Source: Ignavibacteria bacterium RIFCSPLOWO2_12_FULL_56_21 (GTDB lineage: Bacteria; Bacteroidota; Ignavibacteria; UBA10030). From it: a stretch of DNA of 64,000 nucleotides. The stretch spans positions 4,053 through 68,052 of the forward strand of contig MHAK01000075.1 in NCBI GenBank assembly GCA_001802945.1. Direction: 5' to 3'. How positions within the stretch are numbered: position 1 is the first letter of the stretch; every line of letters begins with the position of its first letter. Under the pieces are notes generated by a model that was not told the origin of the DNA, ran no database searches, and was given only the letters and a program-made list of their open reading frames with translations. Positions 24,565-64,000 of the stretch are shown one piece after another. The position numbers were made by a program, and so were the translations under genes.

Positions 24565-24566
24565 CC

Positions 24567-27908: not shown

Positions 27909-28283
27909 ATGCCGAAGCAAATTCTGTTGGCGGAAGATGATGAGGACAACAGGGACCTGATGGTGTTCGTTGTCGATCGGAGCGGTCTGGACCTGGAGCT
28001 TTTGCTGGCCGAGAACGGTCAGGAAGCGGTGGATATCGCCCGGGCAAAGAAGCCGTTACTGATCCTGATGGACATGCAAATGCCGGTCATGGACGGGTTC
28101 ACAGCCACCAAGATACTCAAAGCCGACCCGGAGACGACGGCAATCCCCATCATTGCATTCACTGCACAGGCGCGCGGTGAAGACAAGGACATAACACGTT
28201 CGATCGGGTGCGTTGAACACTATACAAAACCGATGGACCCCGAAGAGCTCATTGGGCTCATTCGCAGATACATTGGAGAATAA
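27909..28283 (+). CDS. Single-domain response regulator (CheY-like)
   Basis: ILLAEDDEDNRDLM...LILMDMQMPVMDGF...IIAFTAQA...YTKPMD. Confidence 0.9.
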   Translation: MPKQILLAEDDEDNRDLMVFVVDRSGLDLELLLAENGQEAVDIARAKKPLLILMDMQMPVMDGFTATKILKADPETTAIPIIAFTAQARGEDKDITRSIGCVEHYTKPMDPEELIGLIRRYIGE

Positions 28284-28303
28284 TTGCCGCGAGGGATAAG
28301 AAC

Positions 28304-31231: not shown

Positions 31232-31247
31232 AACGGAAGAACGACCT

Positions 31248-32402: not shown

Positions 32403-32412
32403 GAGGACGCTC

Positions 32413-49859: not shown

Positions 49860-50540
49860 TCATACCACAAACTTGTAACCCACCGTGTGTACGGTCAACA
49901 AGTGTTTTGGGTCGGCAGGTTTGGTCTCGATCTTCTTCCGAAGGTTGAGGATGAACGTATCGACTGTTCGTGTGGTGGGCGTTTCTTCGTAACCCCAGAC
50001 GTCGTCAAGGAGCTTGGCGCGCGACACAACTTCGCCTTCATGAAGGACAAAGTACTTCAGAAGCTCGAACTCCTTCGCCGTCATTCTCAGAGTCTTCTTT
50101 CCTTTTCGCGCTTCCTGCTTTTTGAAATCTATGTACACATCTCCGAACGTGCATTCTTGGATATCCTGTGCACCGGCGTTCCGTCGACGCAGGAGCGCTT
50201 TCACGCGGGCGATGAGTTCGCGGACGCCAAATGGTTTTGTGAGATAGTCGTCTGCGCCGAGCTCGAGTCCGAGCACCTTGTCCACTTCTTCCCCCTTGCC
50301 GGTGAGCATAAGGATGGGCGTTGTATTTTTGCCTTCGCGGAGCGTCCGGCAGACATCAAAGCCGTTCATACCCGGCAGCATCACATCAAGGATGATCGCG
50401 TCGAAGGAACGCTTTTGCGCGGTGCGGAGTCCTTCTGTTCCGTCGGAACACGTCACGGGTTCAAAGTGCTCTGCGGTGAGAGCATCTTTGAGGCCGCGCA
50501 TAATTGTTGCGTCGTCTTCAATAATGAGAATTCGTTGCAT
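49860..50540 (-). CDS. OmpR/PhoB-family response regulator
   Basis: RILIIEDDATIMRGL...IILDVMLPGMNGFDV...ILMLTGKGEEVDKVLGLELGADDYLTKPF. Winged helix: LRMTAKEFELLKYFVLHEGEVVSRAKLLDDVWGY...RTVDTFILNLRKKIE...TVHTVGYKF. Confidence 0.9.
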   Translation of the reverse strand: MQRILIIEDDATIMRGLKDALTAEHFEPVTCSDGTEGLRTAQKRSFDAIILDVMLPGMNGFDVCRTLREGKNTTPILMLTGKGEEVDKVLGLELGADDYLTKPFGVRELIARVKALLRRRNAGAQDIQECTFGDVYIDFKKQEARKGKKTLRMTAKEFELLKYFVLHEGEVVSRAKLLDDVWGYEETPTTRTVDTFILNLRKKIETKPADPKHLLTVHTVGYKFVV

Positions 50541-50603: not shown

Positions 50604-53063
50604 TTATTGTTTGCCAGCAAGCGCAGGCAGGAGAATGGTCACTGTTGTGCCTTTCCCGACAGTGCTTTCGACTGCGACAGTGCCTCCGTGAGCGTCAACT
50701 GTGTGCTTCACGAGGGGCAACCCGAGTCCGGCGCCGCCTGCCTGAGCCGAGCGAGGATCCTTGACCCGATAGAATGGTTCGAAGATCTTCGGCAATTCGG
50801 CCGCGGGTATACCGATGCCTCCATCAATCACTCTCACGATGACCTGATCCTGAAGAGTAGCTGCCTCAATTCGCACGCGTCGGCGTTTGCCGGAATACTT
50901 GAATCCGTTGACGATAAGGTTCACAAGCGCATCCTGCAGAGCGTCGGCATCGGCGCGCACACGCTGCGGCCGGCGGGGGAGACGGCAGGTCAGCACGCCA
51001 TTCAGCATGCGCGCCTGTCCGGACATCGTTTGCACGGCCGCACGCACGACCGTGTTTAGATCGATCGGGGTCAATTGGTATTCCCGCGTTCCCCGTTCGA
51101 TTTTCGCGAAATCGAGCACATTGTTGACCATGCGTGCCAGACGGTCGCTCTCCCGTCCGATGATCTCAGCATATTCCGCACGTTTTGCCGGCGTTAAGCG
51201 GCGTTCGCGCATCATTTCGGCGAACATCTTAATCGACGTCAACGGCGTGCGAAGGTCGTGCGATACACTCGACACGAAATGTGATTTGAGCCTGCTGAGC
51301 TCGTCGCTTTTTTTCCGCTCCTGCTGCTCAAGTGAGACACGATCTTGAAGGTACAAGCGTTCAAATGCCTCAACGGCTCGGGCGACGACGGAGAGCACTG
51401 CGTCGACCTCTTCCGGCGTCAGCGGATCGCGCCCTTCCTTGAGGAGGCCGGCAACGGCGCCGAGCGACTGGCCTGCATCCGTGTTCAGGCCGCACGCGAG
51501 GTCGAAGCCGTGCGATCGCAACCACGCAGCCCGCGATCGGTCTACCGACCGTGAGGCCGCTGTCGTGCGTTCTGCGGCCAGCAAACGTCCTGATCGAAGT
51601 GCTGAGGTCAGGTCGTCGTCGATGCGGATGGAAGGCAAAGCGGTTCCGCCGGCATTCGATGCGGCCTCGAGCGCATTACGGTGCACCCGATACCATGTGA
51701 ACGTCGTGCCCGGCAGGGTCGCATGCAACTCTTTTACAAGTGCGAGGCCAAGCTCCGCTTCCGCTGCAGCCGCGTGAAACTGTGCCGACGCGCGGTTGAG
51801 GATCTTCGCCATGCTCGTGCGCGTGGGATACAACGCTTCGTCCAGGAGACGTTGGAGATCGGTACGGAAGGGTTCGAGCGCCAGGACCAGACCGATCGTC
51901 GTGACGATTAGGGGAAGCGTTTCAGCGAAAACACCCTCGCCCCGCAGGATCGACAGGAACACTAGTACGGTCAGAAGTTGGACGGAAAGCGCCAAAATGC
52001 CGATGAGGACGTTTGCAAGGCGACGATGCACCTCAACTTCCACGCGAAACACATGGTACCGAAGAAATGCGACCGAAAAACAGAGAGGAACCGCGAGCAC
52101 GAAGACGGTGGTAAGCTCTTCGGGCACCAGCATGTTTGATCCGAACGCCTGAGGCAACACAACAAGGAGCGTGAATGGCAACGAACCGATGATCAGGCCC
52201 CACAGGATCCATCGGAGCGCCACGCGCTGTTCAGCGGATCGCTCTTCCAAGTATCCAACGGCGAGAATCAACAGGCTTGCAGCAATGCAAAGGAAAAAGT
52301 ATAAATGGAATGCATCATACCAGTTCTGGAACGAATGGAACACCGCCGCATCGCCCGACGCCACCGAACGCACATGATAGTACGAGAGTGCGACGGTGAA
52401 AATCGCGGATGGGGCGAAGATCAGGGCGAACGCAGAGCGTGACCGGCCGAGCCGGTGGACGGGAAACTGCGTCGTAAAGAGAAGAAAGCCGGCGGCGACG
52501 ACGTTGTAGACCAGAAAAAGTCCGGCTCTGCGCGCGATGCTCCAGGGGTCCGACGCTTGGATCGCGCCCTGTGTGAGCAGAAGAAGCGCTCCCGCAGCGA
52601 TGAGAGTCCAATGGAGCGTCAGCGCGCCGGGGTTATGAATGCGGCGAACCACAAGAAATAACGCGAACGCGAAGATAACAAGTCCGGTCAATGTGAAGAT
52701 CAGAGGGAACCGGAGGGTGGAAGAGAAGGGGACAAGCACGACAGGTATCTCCGTCTGCATGCCACCGCGGTTCAGTCCGATCTGAATTGTTTCCCCGATC
52801 ATCGAGAGATCTGCCAGCAGCTCCAGGTGTTCCGGTCTCTCCACGCTCCGCCCATTCCACGATACGACCTCATCGCCGACAGCAAGATGGTGTGCTTGTC
52901 GTTCGTGCGGTATATCGGCGACAACCATGCGGCCGTTGTCCAGGACCGCAGTGAACGGTATGCCGGCACGCTCAACGATCGTTGGGATGTTCGTCAGGCA
53001 GAAAGATGCGATCAGCAGATCGATCGCCAGGAAGGAGAAGGTCCGATCAGGCCGCCAGTTCAT
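50604..53063 (-). CDS. Sensor histidine kinase with N-terminal PDZ-like domain and a multi-TM sensor region
   Basis: ATG at 53063 preferred (MNWRPDRTF...); the track start is 53207. PDZ-like: LAVGDEVVSWNGRSVE...IGETIQIGLNRGG. About 8 TM helices. H-box FVSSVSHDLRTPLTSI. ATPase: LIVNGFKYSG, DGGIGI, GAGLGLPLVKHTVDAHGG. Confidence 0.8.
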   Translation of the reverse strand: MNWRPDRTFSFLAIDLLIASFCLTNIPTIVERAGIPFTAVLDNGRMVVADIPHERQAHHLAVGDEVVSWNGRSVERPEHLELLADLSMIGETIQIGLNRGGMQTEIPVVLVPFSSTLRFPLIFTLTGLVIFAFALFLVVRRIHNPGALTLHWTLIAAGALLLLTQGAIQASDPWSIARRAGLFLVYNVVAAGFLLFTTQFPVHRLGRSRSAFALIFAPSAIFTVALSYYHVRSVASGDAAVFHSFQNWYDAFHLYFFLCIAASLLILAVGYLEERSAEQRVALRWILWGLIIGSLPFTLLVVLPQAFGSNMLVPEELTTVFVLAVPLCFSVAFLRYHVFRVEVEVHRRLANVLIGILALSVQLLTVLVFLSILRGEGVFAETLPLIVTTIGLVLALEPFRTDLQRLLDEALYPTRTSMAKILNRASAQFHAAAAEAELGLALVKELHATLPGTTFTWYRVHRNALEAASNAGGTALPSIRIDDDLTSALRSGRLLAAERTTAASRSVDRSRAAWLRSHGFDLACGLNTDAGQSLGAVAGLLKEGRDPLTPEEVDAVLSVVARAVEAFERLYLQDRVSLEQQERKKSDELSRLKSHFVSSVSHDLRTPLTSIKMFAEMMRERRLTPAKRAEYAEIIGRESDRLARMVNNVLDFAKIERGTREYQLTPIDLNTVVRAAVQTMSGQARMLNGVLTCRLPRRPQRVRADADALQDALVNLIVNGFKYSGKRRRVRIEAATLQDQVIVRVIDGGIGIPAAELPKIFEPFYRVKDPRSAQAGGAGLGLPLVKHTVDAHGGTVAVESTVGKGTTVTILLPALAGKQ

Positions 53064-53247
53064 TGATCCGCATGGAGAAGGATTGCCGAAGACTGTACGG
53101 AAGTTTGTTGTGGAAGAAAAGACGAAATCCGAACAAACCGGAACGCAAGCCCGGGCATGGCATTTCAGAATTCTCAGGCGTGGGAACATGACATCAGGTC
53201 CGACCAAGGCCTTGGAGCGATGTGGCTTCGAAGCTCAACTTCGCACC

Positions 53248-53273
53248 GCGAGGGGCCGTTGGCAGCCCCTCGC
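53248..53273 (-). terminator. GC-rich hairpin just downstream of the 5'-nucleotidase gene (no U-tract)
   Basis: GCGAGGGGC (53248-53256), loop CGTTGGCA, GCCCCTCGC (53265-53273). The adjacent palindrome GCTTCGAAGC lies at 53225-53234. Terminator function is a guess. Confidence 0.35.
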
Positions 53274-53287
53274 ATGGCGAAACGTGC

Positions 53288-55150
53288 CTACTTCAGCAGA
53301 AGCATGCGCCGCACTAGTGATCCGTTTCCCGACTGTAGCCGACATATGTACATCCCCGACGGCATGTCTGCAGCATTCCATGAAACCGCATATCGGCCGA
53401 CCGGCTGCTCTTCGTTGATGAGCACGGCGACCTCTCTTCCCAGCAAGTCGAACACCGACACCTTCACGTTGCCCGATTCGTTCAGTCTGTATTCGATCTT
53501 CGTGTTCGGATTGAACGGATTCGGATAGTTCTGCTCGAGCGAGAGAGTGGACGGAACCGCGTTAGCCTGGCCGTCATACACGCCGACGGTCATAAGATAA
53601 TTCCGGACCACGGCATACTCTGTCGTGTCTGAAAACACGTACGGATTCAGGATCTCCATGCCGAGCTGCGGAGCAACGAAACCGCTCATCACGGCGAGAA
53701 TGAACTCATTGGTGGTCACACTATAGACCGCCCCGGTATCGAGGAGTGCTCCGCCGATCCAGACAGAATCGAGCCGTCCGAACGGCGGCCGGGATGCGTC
53801 GTACGTAAACCGCAACGGGAATCCGATCGGAAAGTACTCGTCGTTCAGCTCGATGGATGACAATCCCCATTCCAACCCTTTCAACAGATCGAGTCCCGAA
53901 ATAGCGAATGTCGCCATCCGGTATCCCAGGCCGTTGTCGAGATTGTACCCATAGCCAAGCATGCAAAACACATCCGCTCCCACGACGGGCCCGGCTGGAA
54001 GCGGCTGGGCTGTTGCTCCGCCAACCGTGAGACCGATGTCTGTTCCGGTGAGCGACTGAAACGCGCTGGTGACCAGGAGCCCGACAGGCGTCGTGGCCTC
54101 GTGCCGCGCTGTGAGGTCGAGCGCCAGCTCATCCTGTTGCGTGCCGAATACATGAACAACCTCGGAATAAAAGCTGCCAAAATACGGGCCGAAGATCTGA
54201 TCGACTCCTGCCTGCAGTTCATCAACGATCGGAATGATCGTTTCTGCCTCCGGTACATTCTCGTCGAGGGGTATCAACGCATAGTCGAGGAATCGAACGG
54301 TGCCGGCATCGACGGTCAGACGCAGCTGGCCAATGTTCTCATAGAATGCGCCGGCCTGCACAATGCGCGTTGTGTCGCCGGCGGGATTCCGGATGCCGAT
54401 CGGCGTGGCGAAGGCATAATGGTCATGTCCCCCCACGATGACATCGATGCCGGGAACGGATGCTGCAATCTCCTGGTCCAGAGCTGCGCCAAGATGCGAC
54501 AGGAGGATCACAACGTCACATCCGCCCGTTGTGAGGGCCGTGATCTCTTCTTCCAAGATTGTCGGGAGCGCGGTATCGATCACCGCCGGTTGAGGAAGCG
54601 ACAGAATGTTGGTCTCGGGAGTCGTCAGTCCAAACACGCCCACGGTAATGTTTCCCACGGACTTGATAAGGTGGGGTTTGATGTAGGTCTTCAGACCCGT
54701 TACACCGGCTGAATCGAGACAGGTATTGGCGCTGAGCAACGGGTACGTGATGCCGTTGACGAACGATGTGTCGAGCGACGTCTGCAATGCGACCGGAGTG
54801 AGGTCGAATTCGTGATTGCCGACGGCCATCGCATCGAGCCCAAGTTGCTGTAAGATGCGAAACTCCGGTACGCCAAAGTATGCGTTGAACATCGGGTCGC
54901 CGATGAACAGGTCGCCCGCATGGAGAAACAGCACGTTTGGCTGCGACGCGCGCGTCATGCCGACCAACGTCGCTGCGCGTGCAATGCCGCCGATGCTGCC
55001 TCTGAGGTTCACGCCGCGGGGTCCATGCGGAGCGAGGCTGGAATGCGTGTCGTTGATGTGGAGAATTGTCAGCGTATCGGAGTCGGCAACGCATACGCAC
55101 GAAAGGGCGATCGATGCGGCGAACACGCAGATCATACGAACAGGTTTCAT
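53288..55150 (-). CDS. Secreted bifunctional metallophosphoesterase/5'-nucleotidase with a T9SS C-terminal sorting domain
   Basis: ATG at 55150 preceded by AGGAGG. Signal MKPVRMICVFAASIALSCVCVA. Metallophos motifs: ILHINDTHS, GDLFIGDP, GNHEFD, GGHDH. The C-terminal ~80 aa LEQNYPNPFNPNTKIEY...VFDLLGREV...GMYICRLQSG is the Por secretion tail. Confidence 0.85.
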   Translation of the reverse strand: MKPVRMICVFAASIALSCVCVADSDTLTILHINDTHSSLAPHGPRGVNLRGSIGGIARAATLVGMTRASQPNVLFLHAGDLFIGDPMFNAYFGVPEFRILQQLGLDAMAVGNHEFDLTPVALQTSLDTSFVNGITYPLLSANTCLDSAGVTGLKTYIKPHLIKSVGNITVGVFGLTTPETNILSLPQPAVIDTALPTILEEEITALTTGGCDVVILLSHLGAALDQEIAASVPGIDVIVGGHDHYAFATPIGIRNPAGDTTRIVQAGAFYENIGQLRLTVDAGTVRFLDYALIPLDENVPEAETIIPIVDELQAGVDQIFGPYFGSFYSEVVHVFGTQQDELALDLTARHEATTPVGLLVTSAFQSLTGTDIGLTVGGATAQPLPAGPVVGADVFCMLGYGYNLDNGLGYRMATFAISGLDLLKGLEWGLSSIELNDEYFPIGFPLRFTYDASRPPFGRLDSVWIGGALLDTGAVYSVTTNEFILAVMSGFVAPQLGMEILNPYVFSDTTEYAVVRNYLMTVGVYDGQANAVPSTLSLEQNYPNPFNPNTKIEYRLNESGNVKVSVFDLLGREVAVLINEEQPVGRYAVSWNAADMPSGMYICRLQSGNGSLVRRMLLLK

Positions 55151-55281
55151 GGGACACCTCCTGAAATGGGGAAGAATAGAGTGGGAACAGGTGGACCATA
55201 CAAGAATGAAGGATGTGGGCCGTACATGACAGTACATCAACAAGAAGGTAGAAGAGTGAACAGCAAAGACTTTTTGCCGAA

Positions 55282-55977
55282 TCATGCCGATCGGGTGCAT
55301 CGGGCCCGGGCATACAATGTGCCGTCGCGCACGTATAAGACCCGGTCGGCACATGCGATCAGACGTGTATCATGACTTGCCACGACAACGCCGACATTCC
55401 TTCGGCGTGCGCATGCATGGAGCAATTCGATCACTGCCAGTCCTTGCGAGCTTTCCAGACTGGCCGTCGGTTCATCCGCAAGAATGAGCTGAGCGTCGTT
55501 CACGAGCGCCCGGGCGATGGCGACGCGCTGCTGTTCCCCTTGGCTCATCGAATCCGGCCACCTGGCCGACAGTCCGCTGAGACCCAGTTCGCGAAGGAGA
55601 TGCAGCGAACGCTCACGCGCCGCTTTTCGTGCAGTGCCGGCAAATTCAGAGGCGATCGCCACATTCTCAGCCGCCGTGAGGGCGTTGAGAAGTCGAAAAT
55701 TCTGGAAGACGAAGCCGACATGATACGCGCGTAGCTCCTGCTGTTCACGGGCGGAAAGGTCGGCAGGCGACCGGCCAAAGAGTTCAACGCGCCCATGCGT
55801 CGGCTCGAGCAGTCCCGCGATGAGCTGGAGCAGTGTGGTTTTCCCGCTCCCGCTCGGGCCAAGAACCAGGATTACCTCTCCCGCGGCGACCGTCATCGAG
55901 ATGTCTTTGAGGGCCATAATGCCCGAACCATGATTGTAGAGCTTTGAAACATGCGAGAGAGAAACGATTGTGGTCAT
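55282..55977 (-). CDS. ABC transporter ATP-binding protein (MacB/LolD/FtsE-like)
   Basis: Walker A GPSGSGKTTLL, Q-loop, signature SMSQGEQQRVAIARAL, Walker B LILADEPTASLD-like (LILADEPTASLES). Confidence 0.9.
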   Translation of the reverse strand: MTTIVSLSHVSKLYNHGSGIMALKDISMTVAAGEVILVLGPSGSGKTTLLQLIAGLLEPTHGRVELFGRSPADLSAREQQELRAYHVGFVFQNFRLLNALTAAENVAIASEFAGTARKAARERSLHLLRELGLSGLSARWPDSMSQGEQQRVAIARALVNDAQLILADEPTASLESSQGLAVIELLHACARRRNVGVVVASHDTRLIACADRVLYVRDGTLYARARCTRSA

Positions 55978-57089
55978 ACAAATGCCTCTGTCGCGTAAAT
56001 GGTGCGCAACTTGCGCAATGGGACCAGGGCACTCACAAAGGATACGGCGCTGAGCGCCGCAAGAACGAGGACAACGTCCGAGGCCGTGAGAACGGATGCC
56101 ACTTCGGGAGCGACGAAACCGATGAGGGCGGATAACGGGATCGCCGCACCGGCCGCGACGCCGAACGATACTCCGGCCAGGACGTTCGCCTGTGCGAGTA
56201 CAACGCGCGGCAGAAATCCAGGCGGCGCCCCAATCGCCTTGAGCACGGCGAAGTCGCGCCTTCGTTCCAGCACCGTGAGCGTCAACAACAGGCTCACGAT
56301 TGCCGACAGGGCGACGGCACCGATCACGGAAAGCACAATGAGCACCGGCAGGAATCCCGACCGCATCTCCCGCAGGTTGTTGGCCACGAATGCGTCCTGC
56401 GTGTACACAGATACTCCCGGCACTTCGTCGGCTATCGTTGCAGGCAGCGCTTCAACGGAGTGCTTTCCATTCGCCCGGATGATGTACGCCGACACGAGGT
56501 CGGGAGAATTATAGAGCTTTCGCACATCCTCCAGACAGGCGAACGCATATTGTATCACTACCATGTTCGTTCCGCCCGAAATGCCGACGACGCGAAGATG
56601 AAGATCCTGCACTTTCACCGAATTGCCTACCTGCAACCGCCACTTTGCGGCAAATGCCTTGTCGAGAACCACCTCCCCTTGTCTGGCAACGGTTCGACCT
56701 GCGACAATAACGGGCGGACCGCCCAGCCCTGACGCCGGGTCAAAGCCGGCGAGATCCACGGTCGCCGATCCGCGATCGGTTTCCAACGACGTCAGAAGAA
56801 ATATGACGGGGGCCGCTTGCTGCACACCCGGCACTTCGCGAAGGAGCGACCCATGGGCGGTTGTGAGAAGGGAAAATCCGCGGAGGAGATTGGTGGTTTG
56901 TTGTTGCACCACCCAGGCATCCGCCCCCGTTGCGCGGAAGTAGGCGATGGAGCCCTCTTCAACGCCTCGATACAGCGCGAGCAGAAATCCCATAAGAATG
57001 AGCGACAACGCAATGCCGCTCACCGTCAGAAAATGACGCGTGGGCTGACCGCGAAGCAAGAAAAGAGCATATCGGGACATGGCGATCAT
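55974..57089 (-). CDS. ABC transporter permease, FtsX/MacB-type
   Basis: 4-nt overlap with the ATPase gene. N-terminal TM, large periplasmic loop, then a C-terminal 3-TM FtsX-like bundle (LIVLSVIGAVALSAIVSLLLTLTVLERRRDFAVLKAIGA...). Confidence 0.8.
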   Translation of the reverse strand: MIAMSRYALFLLRGQPTRHFLTVSGIALSLILMGFLLALYRGVEEGSIAYFRATGADAWVVQQQTTNLLRGFSLLTTAHGSLLREVPGVQQAAPVIFLLTSLETDRGSATVDLAGFDPASGLGGPPVIVAGRTVARQGEVVLDKAFAAKWRLQVGNSVKVQDLHLRVVGISGGTNMVVIQYAFACLEDVRKLYNSPDLVSAYIIRANGKHSVEALPATIADEVPGVSVYTQDAFVANNLREMRSGFLPVLIVLSVIGAVALSAIVSLLLTLTVLERRRDFAVLKAIGAPPGFLPRVVLAQANVLAGVSFGVAAGAAIPLSALIGFVAPEVASVLTASDVVLVLAALSAVSFVSALVPLRKLRTIYATEAFV

Positions 57090-57101
57090 AGATCGGAAGT
57101 A

Positions 57102-58202
57102 TCACGAGAACATTGGAACTGTGGTCTTCAGTCGTCCCTGGAATCGCTCGAAGATGTCGGCCAGGGTCGGACCCGTCACCGTGATGCCATGATTCTTCAG
57201 CCCAATAACGGCGCGACTGGGGTCCGGAGTATCGTCCAACAGTCGCGACACTTCTTCGGCCAGTTCCCGTGTGCCGCAGGGAAAATTCTGCGGCGTGCAC
57301 ACAATGTCGTCCATCCACGCATGAACGTGGACAATGGCGCCGACGCCGGGATACGTCTCATAAATCAGCGCGTGTTCGACAGCATCCACGCTGACTCGAG
57401 CCCGCGGCTCACCTTCGGGAGGCATCGACACATGCGCAATGCCGCGGTCGAAATCGAATTCGCGCACCATGAGCACGTCCTTTCCTGCTCCCTGCAGCCG
57501 CGCTTTGTTGCAGCCCCGTGCCGTCATCCAAAAGCTTCCGTTCGAGAACTCGGATACCCGTTCTCGCGCGCTGAGATTTCCGTAACTCAACCCGGTCATG
57601 CCGAAGATCTTGTACAGATGATGCAACTCGTCGGGTGAAAGGACCGAATCGAGCGGAAAAGGAAGGGGAAGCACGCCCATGCGGTCGAGGACAGCCCCGT
57701 GACGGCGAACGTCTTCCACCGCCGCCGAACCGTGCCAGTATCGTTCCGGCAAATCGGGAACAAGGTCGTTGTTTGTGGCATAGTGCGCCGTTGCGATCGG
57801 AAACACACGCTCAAAGACTGCGTTCGCCTCGTATGGAAGGTGGTAGAAACCGGCTTCGGGCGTGGTGAAATAGATCTCGCATCCGTCGAGCCTCCGATGG
57901 TCCGGTCTGGGCGGCACGATGGCCACGGCGAGGTTGGAGAGCGACCGGACGAGGGAAGCGTAACAAAATGAACGGAGGTCGGCCGGCGGCCCCGGTATGC
58001 TCAATACAGATATGACAAAAACGCTCTGTGACCGGCGCCGATACGGTGTCGGCGCCGCAGCGTTCGTAAGATTGAGGACAAACTGCAATCCGTTGACGTC
58101 CTCCGATCGTCGGAAACCGTGCTGTTCAAAGGAACCAGCGAGCGTTGAAACGAGCGCATCGCGCAGCGAGTCGCATCCTTCCGTCCGTGTAGTATACGTC
58201 AT
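57102..58202 (-). CDS. Two-domain protein with a C-terminal class II aldolase/adducin-family domain
   Basis: ATG at 58202 (MTYTTRTEG...) forms an ATGA overlap with the upstream decarboxylase stop. C-terminal half: GNLSARE...FWMTARGCNKARL...DAVEHALIYETYPGVGAIVHVHAW...GLKNHGITVTGPTLADIFERF. N-terminal ~170 aa are unassigned. Confidence 0.7.
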   Translation of the reverse strand: MTYTTRTEGCDSLRDALVSTLAGSFEQHGFRRSEDVNGLQFVLNLTNAAAPTPYRRRSQSVFVISVLSIPGPPADLRSFCYASLVRSLSNLAVAIVPPRPDHRRLDGCEIYFTTPEAGFYHLPYEANAVFERVFPIATAHYATNNDLVPDLPERYWHGSAAVEDVRRHGAVLDRMGVLPLPFPLDSVLSPDELHHLYKIFGMTGLSYGNLSARERVSEFSNGSFWMTARGCNKARLQGAGKDVLMVREFDFDRGIAHVSMPPEGEPRARVSVDAVEHALIYETYPGVGAIVHVHAWMDDIVCTPQNFPCGTRELAEEVSRLLDDTPDPSRAVIGLKNHGITVTGPTLADIFERFQGRLKTTVPMFS

Positions 58203-59596
58203 GACATCACCTCGTGAGATTCGATTGCCATCACGTCGCGGCACACCGTATCGTCGAAAGTTTCCCTCCGTCGCAAAAGGGTTTTTCCGTTTCTTCCGAC
58301 TGACACGATGGCCGGACGTGGATGGCCAAAATTTGATTCAAGCGCCGTGAAATATGCGCCGGTGTCCATGAGCGCGATGACATCGCCCGGCGCGAGCGAC
58401 GGCATCGGTAAGTTTCGATACACGATATCGCCGGCGAAGCACCCAGGTCCGAGGATCGTTATGTGTTCGCTCCGGGGACGGGAGACGCCGGTGCACGGCA
58501 ATACGTCGTGCGCCTCGTAGTACGTCGGCATCGTTACAGTGCCGAGTCCGCCGTCGGTGATCGCCCAGGTGCCGGCCCCGGGACGATGCTTCACCGCATG
58601 GACTTTCAGGAGGAGGAACTGATGCGGCCCGGTCACGCATCGTCCGGGTTCGAAGATCACCTCCGGCAGCCGTTCGCCGGCGAATGCATGATGAACGGCA
58701 TGAGCGATGAAACGGATGAACTCACAAGGATCTGCCGAGGGCGCAGAAGGTGCGGGCAGTCGACCGAACGCCTGGTACTTCAGCATCTCGAGGCTCGTGA
58801 ATTCCCGGGAAGTCCGCGACGCAAACCCGCCGCCGATGTCGATCGTGGTCGGAGCGAAACCAAGCATTCGGGCCTCGCGCAGCAGCATCTCGAGGGTCCG
58901 CACCGCCGGGAGATACTCCTGCGGAGAACGGATCCCTGTACCGATGTGGAGATGGTAGCCCGCGAACAGCAGCGAAGGAGCCCGGTGGAAGCGCGCAAGA
59001 GCTAAACGCACCTCGCCTCCCTTCAGGTCGAGGCCGAAAGCGCATCCTGACCGGCTCCCGGTGGCCGAACCGGCATTCATACCGCGTGGCACGATATCGG
59101 GATTCACGCGGAGCAGGACTTCCGGCCGCAGGTCCATCTCAGCGGCCAGCCGTTCGAGCACATCAAGCTCCGCCAGTGAATCGACAGCAATGAACCGAAC
59201 ATGACTCTCAAGACATGCCCGGATGAAACTTTCGGACTTGCACGGGCCGTTGACGATGATGTCGCAGCCGGCATAACCCACCCTGTGCGCCGTATGCAAT
59301 TCAAGTTCGCTCATGACCTCGATGCGCAGTCCCGCTTCCCGCACAAGCCGCACGATGCCCGGGACGCCGTTGCACTTCATGGCAAAATGCACGGCGACAG
59401 GGCCGGTGTATTCATGTTCCGCAGTGCATTGGAGACGGCGTGCAAAAGAGAGAAGTCGATCCTCATGCACAACGTGAAGCGGCGTTCCAAACTCTTCCGC
59501 CAGCGAAGTCAGGGGCACATCGTTCAGGCGCAGTGTCCCTCCGGCGTCGGCAGAGAGGCCCCAGAGGGTCGGATCGGATATCGCAGGTTGTCGCAT
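58199..59596 (-). CDS. PLP-dependent decarboxylase of the Orn/DAP/Arg (alanine-racemase-fold, group IV) family
   Basis: VHFAMKCNGVPGIVRLV (PLP Lys), YHLHIGTGI, IDIGGGFAS, EPGRCVTGP, ILGPGCFAGD. Confidence 0.85.
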   Translation of the reverse strand: MRQPAISDPTLWGLSADAGGTLRLNDVPLTSLAEEFGTPLHVVHEDRLLSFARRLQCTAEHEYTGPVAVHFAMKCNGVPGIVRLVREAGLRIEVMSELELHTAHRVGYAGCDIIVNGPCKSESFIRACLESHVRFIAVDSLAELDVLERLAAEMDLRPEVLLRVNPDIVPRGMNAGSATGSRSGCAFGLDLKGGEVRLALARFHRAPSLLFAGYHLHIGTGIRSPQEYLPAVRTLEMLLREARMLGFAPTTIDIGGGFASRTSREFTSLEMLKYQAFGRLPAPSAPSADPCEFIRFIAHAVHHAFAGERLPEVIFEPGRCVTGPHQFLLLKVHAVKHRPGAGTWAITDGGLGTVTMPTYYEAHDVLPCTGVSRPRSEHITILGPGCFAGDIVYRNLPMPSLAPGDVIALMDTGAYFTALESNFGHPRPAIVSVGRNGKTLLRRRETFDDTVCRDVMAIESHEVMS

Positions 59597-59673
59597 TGTC
59601 GAAAGTCCACTGTTTACACGTGCAATCTACCCGGTGCAAACGGGTCATGTGTCATGGCGGCGTCAAGAGAGCG

Positions 59674-60786
59674 TCAAGGTACCGTCACCGGCCGCGTCAT
59701 GATCGCAAAGTGCTTGTCCTCCGTCATTCCGAACCGCTCTGCCGCATGAAGTGCGATCGCGTTGTCCGGCGACATCCAGGTCGTCTCGAGCTCATCGAAA
59801 TTCCTGGCCATGCGATGGAGGGCGTCGAACAACAGCGCGTGCACGCGTCCGCGCTGCCAGTGCCGTTTGATCCCTACAGCATAGACAATGAGTCGTCGAA
59901 TGTGCGACCGATGCGTGAGAAAATGGAACACTCCGAACGGCGTCGCACGCCCGCCGCGCATCGGTTGGAGAAGGGGATTCACGTCGAGCACGCATTGCAG
60001 CACGCCGACCGGTTCTTCGCCGTGTTCAACGATGACGTTCAAATCCGGACGCGTGACAAGCCGAAGATCGCGCGCGGCAAACCGGTATTCGTCGGACGAA
60101 ACCGGGAGAAAGAAGCAGTTGTCCGCAAATGCGTCGTTGTATACCTCACGGATCCGCTCCAGCTCTGAGGCGAGGTCGGAGAGTCTCACTGGCCGTACGT
60201 GCAGCTGCGGCGCTAGCGCTTGGGGAGCAGGATGCCGATCGAGCCATTCTCGGATATCCGGATTGCGCCGAGTGTGAAGCATTCGTTCGACGATGAATCC
60301 TGTCTGCTCAAGCAGGGGGAGATACTTCTGTGGATGATGTGTCTGAAAGAAGGTGACGTGCTCATCGAATTTGTCCGCCTGCAGGCCGAGTTCCGAATAG
60401 TGATGAGGATGGAAGGGGCCGTGGAGATCGGTTGCGCCGCGCTGACGGCACCATTCGCCGACCGTTGAGAACAACGCACGAACGGCCGCAGCATCGTTGT
60501 CGCTTTCAAAGTAGCCGAACATGGCCGGCAGCCGCCCGCCGGGGAGTGCATACGCTGGATTCACGACCGCTGTGGTTCGTGCGACGGGAATTCCGTCCTT
60601 CAGGCATAGAAATACGCCGAGCTGCGCGGACCGGAAGTACGGATTCTTGCGGCTGTCCAATGTCCTGCGGACATCGCTGTCCAACGACGGGATCCAGAGG
60701 GGATCCTTGCGATACAGTTTGCGGGGAAGGGCGAGAAATCCGCGCCAGTCGCTCCGGGTCGTCACGCGCCGGATCTCATAGTCCAT
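59674..60786 (-). CDS. GNAT-fold N-acyltransferase family protein (uncharacterised ~370-aa subfamily)
   Basis: IRRVTTRSDWRGFLALPRKLYRKDPLWIPSLDSDVRRTLDSRKNPYF...MFGYFESDNDAAAVRALF...WCRQRGATDLHGPF. C-terminal GNAT motif A-like: VYAVGIKRHWQRGRVHALLFDAL. Confidence 0.65.
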   Translation of the reverse strand: MDYEIRRVTTRSDWRGFLALPRKLYRKDPLWIPSLDSDVRRTLDSRKNPYFRSAQLGVFLCLKDGIPVARTTAVVNPAYALPGGRLPAMFGYFESDNDAAAVRALFSTVGEWCRQRGATDLHGPFHPHHYSELGLQADKFDEHVTFFQTHHPQKYLPLLEQTGFIVERMLHTRRNPDIREWLDRHPAPQALAPQLHVRPVRLSDLASELERIREVYNDAFADNCFFLPVSSDEYRFAARDLRLVTRPDLNVIVEHGEEPVGVLQCVLDVNPLLQPMRGGRATPFGVFHFLTHRSHIRRLIVYAVGIKRHWQRGRVHALLFDALHRMARNFDELETTWMSPDNAIALHAAERFGMTEDKHFAIMTRPVTVP

Positions 60787-60789
60787 GGC

Positions 60790-61908
60790 TCATGTGCCTT
60801 TCCGCACTTCTTCGATCCGGTAGGACCTGTAGATGAACGAAAGGTCCTGCGAGTGGAGCCGCCGGGCCTCATCGTCACGGCCGATAATGCACGGTTCCAG
60901 TTCCAGCGGATGACTGCGGGGAACGAGCAGGTTACGATAGGTCAGCACTGCTGAGTCGACTGCTACGCGGACTGTTTCGCGCAGGAGGTCCGTGAACGCC
61001 TGAGCCGGCATCCACTCAAAAATGTTCGTGAAATTGAACCTGGAGATGCTCCCCGCGGGAAGCGATTGAAAATACTCCCGGCAATCGCCGCTGACGATCG
61101 TTATGCGGTCAAGCCGTTGCCGAAGGGTCTTGATATTCTCCCGCCGCAAATAGGCGGGCAGGTGGTCGAGGTCGTAATATCTGCCGAGTAATGCGTAGGA
61201 CAGGTACGTGCTGTCGCGGAGGGGCAACGTTGTCACCGCGCGACGAACGACATCCGCAAAGTGATGGCCAAAGGAGAAGTGCTCTTCCAACTGCGCAAAA
61301 AATGCCGGATCGAAGAACAGAGACATGACTCGACGGCTGAGAAAGATCCGCGTAAATGCTTTCCACCTCCGGTTCGACCAGGAATGGTCGAACAGTTTCT
61401 CCCGAGCATGCCGGTCGTCGATTGTGAACATCCGTTCGACAAGGGACCTTCCGACAAGCATGCGCGTCATGCGGCCGAGAAGGCGCATATACCGTTCATA
61501 CCGCCCGCAGTGGATGATACCCAGCCGGATATCCCCGGGCCGGACGTCCCAGTACGCGAGTGCCTGTTCCGAGAGCTGAGGGCGGAGCGAACGATAGGTG
61601 TCGATCCTGTGTCGCGACGGCGTAACGCCGAAGAAACAGAGGAGTTCCGGATACGGGAGGACGCGGAGCGCTGCGATCTTCAACTCAAGCAGATGATTTT
61701 GGTGCGGATTCAGGTCGAGCGAGATCACCCGCTTCGGATCGTCCAGGAGAAGAGTGAGAGCATTGCAGCCTCCGGAGGTGATCGTAAAGACCACGTCCGA
61801 CGGAGAAATCCGGAACGCTTCCCGATCGAGCTGTGGATCCTCCCAGCATTGCGCATAGAGGACTTCCTGGAAGACTCCATTGCGGCGTTTGGGGAGGGCC
61901 GTTTTCAT
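60790..61908 (-). CDS. DUF3419 family protein (BtaA-like S-adenosylmethionine:diacylglycerol 3-amino-3-carboxypropyl transferase family)
   Basis: ATG at 61908 preceded by GGAGG. The track's 553-aa version adds an Arg/Pro-rich extension overlapping the upstream gene. VLYAQCWEDPQLDREAFRISPSDVVFTITSGGCNALTLLLDDPKRVISLDLNPHQNHLLELKIAAL matches the DUF3419 N-terminal signature as I recall it. Confidence 0.75.
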   Translation of the reverse strand: MKTALPKRRNGVFQEVLYAQCWEDPQLDREAFRISPSDVVFTITSGGCNALTLLLDDPKRVISLDLNPHQNHLLELKIAALRVLPYPELLCFFGVTPSRHRIDTYRSLRPQLSEQALAYWDVRPGDIRLGIIHCGRYERYMRLLGRMTRMLVGRSLVERMFTIDDRHAREKLFDHSWSNRRWKAFTRIFLSRRVMSLFFDPAFFAQLEEHFSFGHHFADVVRRAVTTLPLRDSTYLSYALLGRYYDLDHLPAYLRRENIKTLRQRLDRITIVSGDCREYFQSLPAGSISRFNFTNIFEWMPAQAFTDLLRETVRVAVDSAVLTYRNLLVPRSHPLELEPCIIGRDDEARRLHSQDLSFIYRSYRIEEVRKGT

Positions 61909-62624
61909 GATCGAGCCTCCGAAGTTGCGTGGGGATGCAACCCCTTTTTTGTATGCCAGGCTGCCCAATCGGCCACGGCCGGCAGGCCGACGAGGACGGC
62001 GTGGAAAAACTGTCCGGTGGCGCTTGCGACGATCAGTCCAGGCACAAAAAGCACATAGAGGGCGTTGAAGCGGAATCCATCCCGGTCGATGTGCAGCGTA
62101 TGTGAGTTGCCGCAGAACTTCCTGAATGACCTCCACGTGGGGATCATTCTTGGGACCGTCGATCGATACGCCTCGTACCCATCTCCGTGGTCTTGTGCTA
62201 GCATCTTTTCTTCGAACAGTATGAGATTGCGATAGTGAAGAGCGAGGAGTACCGGATACGCGACTCCAGGAAGGGGCATGCAGAGGGCAAAAGCCGCGGC
62301 GGCAATCAGGTCGGCCAGGTAGATCGGATTGCGTACGAGGTCGTACGGCGGGGCGATGCGGAGCTCTTCGGGCCGGACTTCGAACGACATGACGCGATGA
62401 GACCGCAGAACGGTCCCCGCGGACATGCGCAGCAAGGAAGCGACTGCACATCCGATAGCGGCGATCAGAAAGCCGAATGAACGGGGGGCCGCTGCTCCCA
62501 GGAGAAGCTCGAACACTGTCTGCTTCACATCAGTCAACACATAGGCGCAAAGGCAAGCGGCAAGCACGATGCCGAGCGATATGAAAATGCGGTACTGGAA
62601 TTCCCAGGCAAGCATCGCGTTCAT
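61905..62624 (-). CDS. Membrane methyltransferase of the PEMT/ICMT (phospholipid / isoprenylcysteine carboxyl methyltransferase) family
   Basis: ATG at 62624 (MNAMLAWEF...) gives ATGA overlaps at both ends. About 5 TM helices. C-terminal signature: PYDLVRNPIYLADLI...ALHYRNLILFEEKMLAQDHGDGYEAYRSTVPRMIP. Confidence 0.75.
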   Translation of the reverse strand: MNAMLAWEFQYRIFISLGIVLAACLCAYVLTDVKQTVFELLLGAAAPRSFGFLIAAIGCAVASLLRMSAGTVLRSHRVMSFEVRPEELRIAPPYDLVRNPIYLADLIAAAAFALCMPLPGVAYPVLLALHYRNLILFEEKMLAQDHGDGYEAYRSTVPRMIPTWRSFRKFCGNSHTLHIDRDGFRFNALYVLFVPGLIVASATGQFFHAVLVGLPAVADWAAWHTKKGLHPHATSEARS

Positions 62625-63556
62625 GTGCCCTCCCGAGGAATGCATACCCGTACTGCGGCGGGGACCGCTTCGATCGAGCACGGCGTCACGCCCAGATATT
62701 CGCCGTCAGCCTCGATCTCCACCGAATCTTCGGCGGCAATCGTCAGCGAGCGGACAGGTCGGAGCGAAAAATGCGGGGTGTGCACATGCCGGGCTGAGTA
62801 AATGCGGCGAAGGTTCGCGAGGCGAACGGGGAGCGACTGTTCCTTCATGACGAGAAGGTCGAGTGTTCCGTCGAACGGGTTCGCTCCCGGCGTCAGATTC
62901 ATTCCGCCGCCGGTGAACTGACCGTTGCCGATGACGACGCCAAGCACCCGGTGCGATTCGATCGCATGACCGTCAACTGCGATGGTCAGGTCTTGATTCG
63001 GATGACGGAACAGCATCCTGAATGCGCCGAGAGCGAACGTCATTCGGCCGTTCATTCGTTTCGGTGCGGATTCAACTTCGCGCACGACTGCGGCGCCGAT
63101 TCCAAGCTGGCATTCGTTGACGAATAATCGTCCGCACAGCGTACGTCGCCGGTCCCGGAAGCGAACGTGTCCCAGGTCCATGGCGCGGGAATTGCCCGCG
63201 GCGATGACGCCGATCTGATCACGGAGGCCGCGAGGAAGATTGAGTCCCTGGGCCAATCCTTGTCCGGTGCCGCTACTGAGAATGCCGAGCGTGGGAAGGG
63301 AGGACGTGGGGGCGCCGTTGATGCGGAGTCCGTTGACGACCTCCTGAACAGTACCGTCGCCGCCGACGGCTATGATCGTGCGGATGGAGTGCTCGGAGGC
63401 GAGCCGTAGTGCAGTCGCTTCGGCTTCGCCGCGTACGCACGTGACGTGGATTCGGAGTTCGTTCCCAAGCTGTCCGCGAAGCGCTTCGATCAGCGCCGGG
63501 GCCCGGGTGCCGGTTTTTCCGCCGGCGGAGGCAGGATTGATGATACAGGCAATCAT
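62621..63556 (-). CDS. Diacylglycerol-kinase-family lipid kinase (YegS/BmrU/DgkB-like)
   Basis: IACIINPASAGGKTG...IIAVGGDGTVQEVVNGL (GGDGT motif)...LGILSSGTGQGLAQGL... Confidence 0.85.
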   Translation of the reverse strand: MIACIINPASAGGKTGTRAPALIEALRGQLGNELRIHVTCVRGEAEATALRLASEHSIRTIIAVGGDGTVQEVVNGLRINGAPTSSLPTLGILSSGTGQGLAQGLNLPRGLRDQIGVIAAGNSRAMDLGHVRFRDRRRTLCGRLFVNECQLGIGAAVVREVESAPKRMNGRMTFALGAFRMLFRHPNQDLTIAVDGHAIESHRVLGVVIGNGQFTGGGMNLTPGANPFDGTLDLLVMKEQSLPVRLANLRRIYSARHVHTPHFSLRPVRSLTIAAEDSVEIEADGEYLGVTPCSIEAVPAAVRVCIPREGT

Positions 63557-63683
63557 GACGGCGGCATAATAGCCGGCCCGCCGTCGACAATTGTCAGTTC
63601 AATGGCAGGAATGTGTCAAGAACTTGTCAAGCAGTTGATGAACTTCTTCCTCGATGACCTTTTTGCAGGCAATTGTACGTTCC

Positions 63684-64000
63684 TCATGGATGTTCGATAC
63701 CCTTTGGATAACGGTCTGCGGCCAGATTCAATTGCACCCTGTGTTCAAGCAGTGCCTTCAGTCCGGCGAGCACCAGCGAAAAGCCTTGCGTCGATCCAGT
63801 GGCCTGCAGTACACGTTCGTCGCCGGTTCCCGTAAAACCCGCTCTGTGATGTCCACAAATCCGCCTTGTGATTCTGGATGACCGGAGGGGGTATGTACAG
63901 TCCGATGTGGCGTGATGGAAAGCGAAAGTAGGCAAGCCGACCTTTTAGGCCATAATACGGTATCCCGTAGCTGATCTTTTCATCCGCATCCGGTGCGGCT
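63684..64000 (-). pseudogene. Possible DUF1801/YdhG-like gene fragment running in from the right edge, with an apparent frameshift
   Basis: My translation of one minus-strand frame from 63999: AAPDADEKISYGIPYYGLKGRLAYF..HIGLYIPPPVIQNHKADL, which is DUF1801-like. This frame stops near 63746. The track ORF 63684-63935, in another frame, ends ...GFSLVLAGLKALLEHRVQL. Very tentative. Confidence 0.25.

Follow-up and report, generated by a model that had tools for sequence, protein, structure and literature searches.

To our knowledge, bacteria have few pathways for the head groups of membrane lipids, and these are thought to be well catalogued. One of them builds an amino head group from S-adenosylmethionine (SAM): in the BtaA/BtaB pathway to the betaine lipid diacylglyceryl-trimethylhomoserine (DGTS), described in Rhodobacter and Sinorhizobium and represented by BTA1 in algae, an enzyme of the DUF3419 family is paired or fused with a methyltransferase. 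As far as we know, BtaA is the sole characterised member of DUF3419. Here we analyse a 64,000-nucleotide stretch of the genome of Ignavibacteria bacterium RIFCSPLOWO2_12_FULL_56_21 (contig MHAK01000075.1, positions 4,053 to 68,052; called the window below) that carries an operon of eight genes, g1 to g8, in which g3 encodes a DUF3419 protein.

BtaA acts on diacylglycerol (PMC6302742), and other described systems resemble other parts of the operon. The route proposed for MccD and MccE of microcin C, which has in vitro support, transfers the 3-amino-3-carboxypropyl (acp) group of SAM and then removes its carboxylate with a pyridoxal phosphate (PLP) decarboxylase, leaving an aminopropyl group (PMC10491745). 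In Escherichia coli, phosphatidylhomoserine and phosphatidylpropanolamine arise from side products of PssA followed by decarboxylation (PMC12221286). Bacterial ceramides are made by Spt, bCerS and CerR (PMC11334938, PMC11087976); the acyl-CoA N-acyltransferase of dihydroceramide synthesis is listed as ‘aca: CC_1154, yghO ECD_02850’ (PMC9386255).

Each of the proteins g1–g8 falls into a known enzyme family, and DGTS already offers a general precedent for a lipid whose amino head group derives from SAM. What we did not find in any paper is the combination: a membrane-fused ICMT/PEMT–DUF3419 pair, an altered LysA-like decarboxylase, an acyltransferase of the ceramide-synthase type, a lipid kinase, an aldolase-like protein and a Lol-like pump. 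The original prediction for this DNA knew of no characterised pathway with such a combination, and our literature searches turned up no paper describing the gene cluster. We put at roughly one half the probability that g1–g8 are a horizontally mobile, self-contained operon whose enzymes tailor a membrane lipid and whose pump then extracts the product towards the outer membrane. Tailoring, as predicted from the enzyme families, would comprise acp transfer from SAM, decarboxylation to aminopropyl, N-acylation and/or methylation, and a kinase step, with extraction by the pump.

Organization and conservation of the operon

Positions 55282–63556 contain eight open reading frames (ORFs), all on the minus strand, and every one begins with ATG and ends with TGA. 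Ten genes had been counted originally in this interval, with only eight families named. ATGA overlaps join g1/g2, g2/g3, g5/g6 and g7/g8, and the remaining gaps measure 3 nt (g3/g4), 77 nt (g4/g5) and 12 nt (g6/g7). These junctions match the coupling described earlier, that is, one strand, ATGA overlaps and gaps of at most 12 nt but for one of 77 nt. The family calls made at that time also hold in Pfam and NCBIfam searches and in structure prediction, the PEMT match of g2 being sub-threshold in the window protein.

A scan with a g4 profile, using one genome per GTDB species, yielded 106 loci, 80 of which were examined for gene order with tblastn of g1–g8. The original prediction named conservation of gene order across genomes as a check, and the order is conserved: in 52 of the 80 loci the complete set g1–g8 is present with order and strand unchanged, and no rearranged order is seen among the 80. 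The remaining loci are mostly cut at contig ends, and about seven (Trueperaceae and fen Bacteroidales) keep g1–g6 without g7/g8. Wherever the upstream flank is long enough, g1 is found. Homologues of each of the eight genes number hundreds to thousands.

Carriers in the 80 loci span at least nine phyla, their titles naming Ignavibacteriota, Bacteroidota, Aminicenantes and other Acidobacteriota, Gemmatimonadota, Nitrospirota, Kryptoniota, Calditrichia, WOR-3 and Trueperaceae; the Bacteroidota include Saprospiraceae, Chitinophagaceae, Cyclobacteriaceae and Bacteroidales. All 80 loci come from metagenome-assembled genomes (MAGs) or metagenome assemblies. No cultured carrier is among them, and the members of the sequence clusters gave no isolate names either. 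The genes that flank the operon vary by lineage, indicating that the eight genes constitute a self-contained block. Two MAG loci labelled ‘uncultured Eubacteriales’ (L015 and L045) are colinear with that of an Aminicenantales MAG (L016), with near-identical match coordinates, and their taxonomic labels look doubtful.

The DUF3419 protein and its membrane partner

The g3 protein matches PF11899 with 233.2 bits over profile positions 5–381 of 385 and conserves the SAM-type motif ITSGGCN...LD.NP.Q. Its identity to btaB-linked BtaA proteins is 23–28% (Sinorhizobium, Rhizobium, Chondrinema). Within this range lie the Sinorhizobium BtaA with btaB downstream (28%) and a Chondrinema ‘BtaA family protein’ that precedes a class I methyltransferase (26%); identity to the Brevibacillus DUF3419 protein is 33–34%. 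In a small neighbour-joining tree (20 sequences, no bootstrap), the cluster-type DUF3419 proteins form one tight clade whose sister is the Brevibacillus/Roseinatronobacter type, found in a UbiA/PPDK context, and btaB-linked BtaA forms a separate clade. By its identities and its place in this tree, g3 is a DUF3419 protein but not a BtaA orthologue. Membership of the BtaA clade had been implied in the original prediction. The protein lies outside that clade, and we know of no non-lipid function in the clade to which it belongs, an outcome that leaves the earlier lipid hypothesis standing.

The partner of g3 also differs from that of BtaA. The cluster encodes no class I methyltransferase, either in the window or in any related locus; BtaB is a soluble class I enzyme, whereas the partner here is an integral-membrane protein of the ICMT/PEMT type, g2. 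The shared features are the DUF3419 enzyme, the pairing or fusion of a SAM enzyme with a methyltransferase and, as proposed here, a membrane-lipid product. Unlike the BtaA/BtaB pathway, the present cluster adds a decarboxylase, a kinase, an acyltransferase of the ceramide-synthase type, an aldolase-like protein and a pump.

In most orthologues g2 and g3 are fused, forms of 607–648 aa predominating. The window proteins are separate, as are those of four of the five closest relatives (P0242, P0243, P0245 and P0246; 61–67% identity), the fifth (P0244; 66%) being fused. These unfused relatives and the clean ATGA junction rule out an assembly frameshift as the source of the split. Most fused orthologues carry recorded PF04191 matches and a few carry PF04140. 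NCBIfam matches of g2 are weak: 29 bits to isoprenylcysteine O-methyltransferase, and 26 bits to the lipid A 1-phosphate O-methyltransferase LmtA over nearly the whole domain. Two motifs, VRNPIY (97) and FEEKML...GYEAY (137–153), are kept in 71 orthologues.

DUF3419 genes occur in at least five genomic settings, including the btaB-linked one and the present cluster. A second cluster, so far uncharacterised, is conserved between a Firmicute (Brevibacillus laterosporus B9, NZ_CP011076; L087 2884–14272) and an alphaproteobacterium (Roseinatronobacter sp. S2 plasmid; L090 523–8507). Its core order is a UbiA prenyltransferase, a PPDK_N/phosphoenolpyruvate-utilising phosphotransferase, DUF3419, a 439-aa protein with no assigned function, a g4-related GNAT and an AMP-binding enzyme; the Brevibacillus locus also has a hydroxymethylglutaryl-CoA reductase upstream and a P450 downstream. 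This arrangement resembles an isoprenoid-lipid counterpart of the kinase, DUF3419 and GNAT theme. Elsewhere, DUF3419 lies beside a haem-oxygenase-like di-iron ‘iron-containing redox enzyme’, a GNAT and an RND transporter on a Mycobacterium riyadhense plasmid (L092 6007–11668), and beside a haem-oxygenase-like redox enzyme, a GNAT and an Asp/Asn beta-hydroxylase on Xylella fastidiosa pXF-CO33 (L093 4190–8841). In a Sinorhizobium meliloti Ak57 record that bears the label pSymB despite a length of 3.7 Mb (CP090106; L086 2884–4133), an unannotated btaA lies in two overlapping frames with btaB intact downstream, which points to a frameshift or sequencing error.

A kinase-like enzyme, DUF3419 and a g4-like GNAT thus recur in both sister clades. 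The Brevibacillus GNAT has a weak but detectable relationship to g4, and the kinase folds are unrelated (PPDK_N type versus that of g1). Phosphorylation and N-acylation therefore seem to accompany this branch of DUF3419, suggesting that phosphorylation is part of its chemistry.

A LysA-like decarboxylase with a changed distal site

The g5 protein matches Orn_Arg_deC_N (140 bits) and Orn_DAP_Arg_deC (46 bits) in Pfam. Its closest relative in the PDB is the diaminopimelate decarboxylase 1twi (1e-45), followed by the D-ornithine/lysine decarboxylase DokD, the glutamyl-acyl carrier protein decarboxylase BtrK and the N-citrylornithine decarboxylase FslC. With LysA and with BtrK and FslC, relatives that take tethered substrates, g5 shares the fold, the PLP lysine, the EPGR motif and the catalytic cysteine. 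Lys74 (which binds PLP), His217 (which stacks on the cofactor), the glycines GGG255–257 of the phosphate loop, EPGR316–319 (Glu316/Arg319), Cys386 and the GAYF motif are all kept and conserved across orthologues. The lysA model (TIGR01048) is also its best NCBIfam match, but the score of 238.5 bits is below the curated cut-off of 297.9; further differences from LysA are the distal-site residues and some 45 extra residues inserted between GGG and EPGR.

In the diaminopimelate decarboxylase of Thermotoga maritima, Arg249 and Arg285 bind the distal carboxylate of diaminopimelate and Glu315 its distal ammonium, and a hydrophobic residue at position 315 is required for activity on hydrophobic D-amino acids (PMC8277567). 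Aligned with this enzyme (2yxx), g5 keeps Arg249 as Arg319 and replaces Arg285 by Met356 and Glu315, in the CESGD loop, by Phe387. The ‘CF’ pair that includes Phe387 is at least 95% conserved among 68 sequences (the window protein and 67 orthologues); the position of Met356 varies. Loss of the distal Glu to Phe and of one Arg suggests that the pocket is built for a substrate with an uncharged far end, and a predicted pocket of this kind fits an amino acid tethered to a lipid. On the cut-off and the distal-site residues, g5 is rejected as an ordinary LysA. The comparison with carboxy(nor)spermidine decarboxylase drawn in the original prediction gives way to this LysA/diaminopimelate decarboxylase-like assignment, no carboxynorspermidine decarboxylase model being among the NCBIfam matches. 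In one ENA contig (L001 11113–12556) the g5-type decarboxylase is called as two genes of 360 and 140 aa; it is intact at 480 aa in a sibling contig (L002), and the break is probably an assembly frameshift.

An acyltransferase of the ceramide-synthase type

Pfam finds nothing significant in g4 (Acetyltransf_1, E=0.023), and Acetyltransf_1 matches the C-terminal half in 39 of 56 family members. An AlphaFold model built with 56 homologues (predicted local distance difference test score, pLDDT, 93.6) matched tandem GNATs in Foldseek: the glucosamine N-acetyltransferase 5kf1, MAB_4324, the clavulanate tandem GNAT and MshD, with 7q3a and 2wpw among the matches. The protein is 25% identical to E. coli yghO over 98% of the query (E=4e-25; tblastn, plasmid records). 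Alignment of the g4 family profile with YghO in hhalign gave a probability of 100% (E=6.3e-42, 361 columns). At E≤1e-3 an exhaustive search gave 4430 representative relatives of g4, and tightening the limit to E≤1e-30 left 265.

Fusions occur among paralogues of g4 (about 28–33% identity), some with a fatty acyl-AMP ligase and some with an alpha-oxoamine synthase that best matches the model of CFB-type serine palmitoyltransferase; these fusions give indirect support for the use of fatty acyl groups by g4. We infer from this homology that g4 would N-acylate an amine with a long-chain acyl group, not acetate. In E. coli PN43 (NZ_MG591698; L098 1–10119), yghO is divergent from a group of sphingolipid-type genes that encode a fatty acyl-AMP ligase, an NAD-dependent epimerase/dehydratase, an acyl carrier protein and an alpha-oxoamine synthase, and on a Streptomyces plasmid a synthase, a g4-like GNAT and an epimerase stand in a row. 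LptF/LptG paralogues and a ‘LPS biosynthesis protein’ come next in the PN43 record; a dedicated lipid exporter may accompany that cluster too.

The g4 protein is a full-length homologue of YghO and CC_1154, and g1 belongs to a family that contains ceramide kinases. The differences from ceramide synthesis are that g4 represents a distinct subfamily and that the Spt/CerR association of the paralogues (E. coli PN43, Streptomyces) is absent from all g1–g8 cluster loci. None of Spt, CerR, a dedicated acyl carrier protein or an acyl-ACP synthetase is associated with the cluster in the examined loci. The sole alpha-oxoamine synthase nearby, upstream in Ignavibacterium sp. (L094), is Kbl (679 bits) and is rejected as Spt.

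Lipid kinase, aldolase-like protein and pump

The g1 protein scores above the curated YegS/Rv2252/BmrU cut-off (TIGR00147, 158.7 bits; cut-off 118.65) and matches DAGK_cat (73.3 bits) and YegS_C (100.3 bits). Its GGDGT motif is kept across orthologues, its PDB relatives are DgkB, YegS and BmrU, and no transmembrane (TM) segment is predicted in it. The DAGK_cat family includes ceramide kinases.

The true start of g6 is M15 of its ORF, giving 366 aa. Its AlphaFold model (pLDDT 91) comprises an N-terminal alpha/beta domain of about 175 aa that has no convincing match and a C-terminal domain that matches AraD, FucA, TqaM, NovR and YgbL in Foldseek; Aldolase_II (PF00596) scores 59.4 bits in this C-terminal half. 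Conserved motifs are GN.S.R (206–213; SYGNLSAR), SVD (271–273) and, as the three metal-ligand histidines, HxH (292/294) and His338; the S-V-D triplet resembles the SSD of AraD. In the class II aldolase superfamily the GN-S-R motif binds phosphate, and g6 probably binds a metal and a phosphorylated substrate, as predicted from these motifs. The earlier link to MtnB is weak: TIGR03328 scores 30.7 bits against a cut-off of 137.05 and matches only residues 222–317, and g6 is rejected as MtnB. A kinship of its N-terminal domain with the N-domain of NAD kinases and DAGK proteins was likewise rejected, on weak 71-residue Foldseek matches (E about 0.02) and an hhalign probability of 0.1 for the g6 family against g1 orthologues.

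The predicted topology of g7 is TM1, a periplasmic MacB_PCD domain and TM2–4, with scores of 50 bits for MacB_PCD and 32 bits for FtsX and weak matches to lolCE and devC. The g8 protein matches ABC_tran (123 bits) and, in NCBIfam, DevA (196 bits), FtsE (188), LolD (187) and MacB (180), all below the cut-offs. The four-TM FtsX fold and MacB periplasmic core of g7, and the nearness of g8 to DevA, LolD and MacB, recall the type VII ABC systems LolCDE, MacAB and DevBCA. The pair differs from them in missing the equivalog cut-offs and in being absent from some carriers, fen Bacteroidales having outer-membrane beta-barrel proteins and a lipoprotein metallophosphoesterase in its place. No membrane-fusion adaptor (MacA/DevB) is encoded in the window or related loci, and the pump architecture is thus Lol-like. 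Lol and Dev systems move lipid or lipidated cargo.

Proposed pathway

Four independent links to lipids lead us to read the operon as lipid tailoring: g1 passes the lipid-kinase cut-off, g3 belongs to the BtaA family, g4 is homologous to YghO/Aca/bCerS, and g2 is a membrane protein resembling ICMT, PEMT and LmtA. The lipid reading of the original prediction is strengthened by the ceramide-synthase family of g4 and by the g2–g3 fusion in most relatives. The reaction assignments that follow all rest on family membership. A lipid would be tailored at the inner membrane, on its cytoplasmic face, before being drawn towards the outer membrane. The g3 protein would move the acp group of SAM onto the lipid, the acceptor being either a hydroxyl, as for BtaA, or, slightly preferred, a phosphate placed on the lipid by g1, in chemistry of the MccD type. 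The g5 enzyme would strip the carboxyl to give a 3-aminopropyl head group, g4 would attach a fatty acyl chain to the aminopropyl amine, and the g2 domain would add a methyl to the nitrogen, or to an oxygen of the phosphate or carboxyl. The g6 protein, whose role is least clear, would work on a phosphorylated intermediate, and g7/g8 would extract the product from the inner membrane.

The succession of acp transfer and PLP decarboxylation to aminopropyl, already suggested in the original prediction, has its precedent in MccD and MccE: a SAM acp transferase and then a fold-III PLP decarboxylase are proposed to produce an aminopropyl group on a phosphate oxygen, and a GNAT domain is present there too (PMC10491745). 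MccD differs in its class I methyltransferase fold, which is unrelated to DUF3419, and in its substrate, a peptidyl-nucleotide and not a lipid. The GNAT of MccE serves self-immunity. A phosphate acceptor is slightly preferred here because a kinase is conserved in both sister DUF3419 clades, because alkylation of phosphate by SAM is chemically easy, with MccD and LmtA as precedents, and because E. coli contains traces of homoserine and propanolamine phospholipids (PMC12221286). Those E. coli lipids are the same as a phosphate-linked glycerolipid variant would give. There they are trace products of CDP-diacylglycerol and free homoserine, whereas the route proposed here would be dedicated, SAM-dependent and independent of CDP-alcohols.

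Several observations weigh against lipid tailoring of this kind. The carriers are all uncultured, and the reactions are assigned by homology. N-acylation by g4 and N-methylation by g2 compete for one amine, so that at least one of these roles is wrong or the two act on different atoms. The PEMT score of g2 (20.7 bits) is below the Pfam gathering score of 25, and its VRNPIY motif has Asn where the RHPxY motif of ICMT/PEMT has His. Diaminopimelate decarboxylases use a D-centre and the SAM-derived group is L, although relatives such as BtrK take L-substrates. Phosphatidic acid is a central intermediate, and as the acceptor it would make a dedicated kinase seem unnecessary. Finally, the envelope phosphoesterases and PhoR-like kinase that lie beside the cluster in some lineages fit a phosphorus-free product better than a phosphate-linked one.

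More tentatively, the operon may make a new class of membrane lipid, with a 3-aminopropyl (‘homo-ethanolamine’) head group built from SAM by a route that avoids CDP-alcohol chemistry, an amide-linked fatty acid added by an enzyme of the ceramide-synthase type, and export to the outer membrane. In that case environmental lipidomics would have left unassigned a lipid carried by many uncultured Ignavibacteriota, Bacteroidota, Acidobacteriota (Aminicenantes), Gemmatimonadota and others. An amino head group would then be made in a new way, a SAM-derived group being installed on a lipid and afterwards decarboxylated. A large branch of DUF3419 would gain a function, as would a subfamily of ceramide-synthase-type acyltransferases, and the genes would offer lipid geochemists and metagenomicists a marker for an unassigned lipid class in bacteria of sediment, aquifer, peat and wastewater that lack cultured representatives. 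The eight-gene block is compact and self-contained and is thus directly amenable to heterologous expression.

Alternative explanations

We regard as unlikely the phosphorus-free ether lipid of the BtaA type that was originally proposed, in which g3 would alkylate the sn-3 hydroxyl of diacylglycerol before decarboxylation, N-methylation or N-acylation, the product replacing phospholipids under phosphate limitation. Diacylglycerol O-alkylation is the only proven DUF3419 chemistry (PMC6302742). In Ignavibacteriota the operon travels with a PnpS/PhoR-like two-component system, a secreted 5'-nucleotidase and an outer-membrane endonuclease/exonuclease/phosphatase (EEP) phosphatase, which together resemble a phosphate-scavenging set, and the metallophosphoesterase of fen Bacteroidales lies downstream of the cluster. 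These accessory genes, however, accompany only about 10–15% of loci, and the PhoR/PhoB similarity is below every curated cut-off and generic for the regulator class. The scheme also gives no role to the universally conserved kinase g1 or to the phosphate-binding motif of g6, and g3 lies outside the btaB-linked clade, with no BtaB. A betaine lipid, the kind of product named earlier, is itself unlikely: BtaB is lacking, the cluster includes a decarboxylase, and a plain diacylglycerol-ether scheme leaves the conserved kinase without a role.

In a sphingolipid-type pathway, which we consider quite unlikely, g4 would serve as ceramide synthase for a long-chain base supplied from elsewhere and g1 as the kinase of the ceramide. 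The g3 and g5 enzymes would give ceramide-1-phosphate a phospho-aminopropyl head, g2 would N-methylate it in the manner of PEMT, and g7/g8 would send the product to the outer membrane. This product would be a homologue of sphingomyelin or ceramide-phosphoethanolamine. Five of the six enzymes would then perform the type of reaction known for their nearest characterised relatives in a single linear order (g4 as bCerS, g1 as DAGK_cat, g3 and g5 as MccD/MccE, g2 as PEMT), and bacterial sphingolipids, the products of the known ceramide pathway, are trafficked to the outer membrane (PMC11087976). Against this, no locus has an Spt-like or CerR-like gene in or near the cluster, and one would expect a block that passes from phylum to phylum to need only universal precursors. 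At only about 25% identity to YghO, moreover, g4 belongs to a subfamily distinct from it.

We hold it very unlikely that no lipid is involved and that the operon yields a soluble secreted metabolite (a polyamine-like compound, an osmolyte or a metallophore of the opine type), which acp transfer, decarboxylation and acetylation would produce and the ABC pump would carry out of the cell. Metallophore and polyamine pathways do include acp transferases and fold-III decarboxylases (for example the NAS/CntL and FslC families), and MacB-type pumps are generally known to export small molecules as well. The cluster nevertheless holds four separate lipid-linked families (g1, g2, g3 and g4), with g3 fused to a five-TM domain, g4 in a family of fatty N-acyltransferases and a hydrophobic distal pocket in g5, and several lineages have outer-membrane beta-barrel proteins instead of the pump.

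DgkA and DgkB recycle diacylglycerol after the transfer of phosphoethanolamine or lipoteichoic acid, and a donor-lipid cycle, in which a phospho-aminopropyl glycerolipid would pass its head group to lipid A or another surface molecule outside the inner membrane and g1 would recycle the diacylglycerol, accounts for the constant DgkB-like kinase, for the recurring envelope phosphoesterase- or phosphotransferase-type proteins and two-component system nearby and for the weak alignment of g2 with LmtA over most of its length, but it is wholly inferential. The transferases proposed for it are confined to certain lineages, the cluster encodes no EptA- or ArnT-type enzyme and g4 has no clear part in it; we hold this reading, too, very unlikely.

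Genes around the operon

Positions of the operon genes and of neighbouring features are collected in Table 1. The promoter candidate upstream of g1 counts as weak evidence, since sigma-70-like sites are no more numerous in the region than in shuffled sequence. An Rfam search of 53000–64000 (E up to 1) returned no riboswitch or other RNA element.

Table 1. Operon genes and neighbouring features in the window, with the basis of each assignment
Feature	Description	Position	Strand	Basis
g1	Soluble YegS/Rv2252/BmrU-family lipid kinase, 311 aa	62621–63556	minus	DAGK_cat and YegS_C
g2	Membrane ICMT/PEMT-family methyltransferase-like protein, 239 aa, about 5 TM	61905–62624	minus	PEMT 20.7 bits and motifs
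g3	DUF3419 (BtaA-family) protein, 372 aa, presumed SAM 3-amino-3-carboxypropyl transferase	60790–61908	minus	PF11899
g4	Tandem-GNAT N-acyltransferase, YghO/Aca/bCerS family, 370 aa	59674–60786	minus	Foldseek, hhalign
g5	LysA-like fold-III PLP decarboxylase, changed distal substrate site, 465 aa	58199–59596	minus	Pfam, NCBIfam, PDB relatives
g6	Two-domain protein with C-terminal class II aldolase/epimerase fold, 366 aa	57102–58202	minus	Aldolase_II, Foldseek
g7	MacB/LolC/DevC-type permease, 371 aa	55974–57089	minus	MacB_PCD, FtsX
g8	ABC ATPase, partner of g7, 231 aa	55282–55977	minus	ABC_tran
Candidate promoter	Sigma-70-like, TTGACA-18-GACAAT; ends about 33 nt upstream of the g1 start codon	63590–63619	minus	Pattern scan, 10/12 matches
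g9 (accessory, lineage-specific)	Secreted 5'-nucleotidase/metallophosphoesterase with type IX secretion system (T9SS) sorting domain	53288–55150	minus	Metallophos, 5_nucleotid_C, Por_Secre_tail
Histidine kinase	867 aa, long multi-TM N-terminal sensor region	50604–53207	minus	HisKA/HATPase_c
Response regulator	OmpR family	49860–50540	minus	Response_reg/Trans_reg_C
EEP–Omp85 protein	EEP domain fused to Omp85 barrel, 733 aa	47655–49856	minus	Exo_endo_phos and Omp85

The g9 gene starts 131 nt beyond g8 on the same strand, has its own AGGAGG site and lies outside 55282–63556. At a strict threshold, a g9 orthologue adjoins the cluster in six loci (L011, L014, L022, L027, L028 and L034). The core of the histidine kinase is nearest to PnpS/PhoR and the regulator is generic OmpR/PhoB-like, all matches being below the cut-offs. 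An orthologous regulator (≥50% identity) adjoins the cluster in 11 loci, usually as a kinase–regulator pair just upstream. EEP–Omp85 homologues adjoin it in L011, L014, L022, L047 and L082; for the type of the EEP domain, nuclease or sphingomyelinase, there was no informative PDB sequence match. All four of these neighbours, the 5'-nucleotidase, histidine kinase, regulator and EEP–Omp85 protein, also surround the operon in L011, L014 and L022, arranged differently.

The neighbouring two-component system probably controls the operon in Ignavibacteriota and some other carriers. The accessory set suggests co-regulation in those lineages; phosphate limitation or envelope stress as the controlling signal would each fit it, and it proves neither. 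The idea of phosphate limitation raised in the original prediction is circumstantial only: the PhoR/PnpS-like kinase core, which scores below the cut-offs, and the envelope phosphoesterases of some lineages speak for it.

Two regions of the window are farther from the operon. At 1695–4377 (minus strand), a group II PLP decarboxylase (Pyridoxal_deC) is followed by a gene of the chromate-transporter family, their ORFs overlapping; this pair is unrelated to the operon. At 21514–33501 (plus strand), genes for a HerA-like ATPase and for type II secretion/type IV pilus F and E proteins precede a dense run of hybrid histidine kinases and response regulators.

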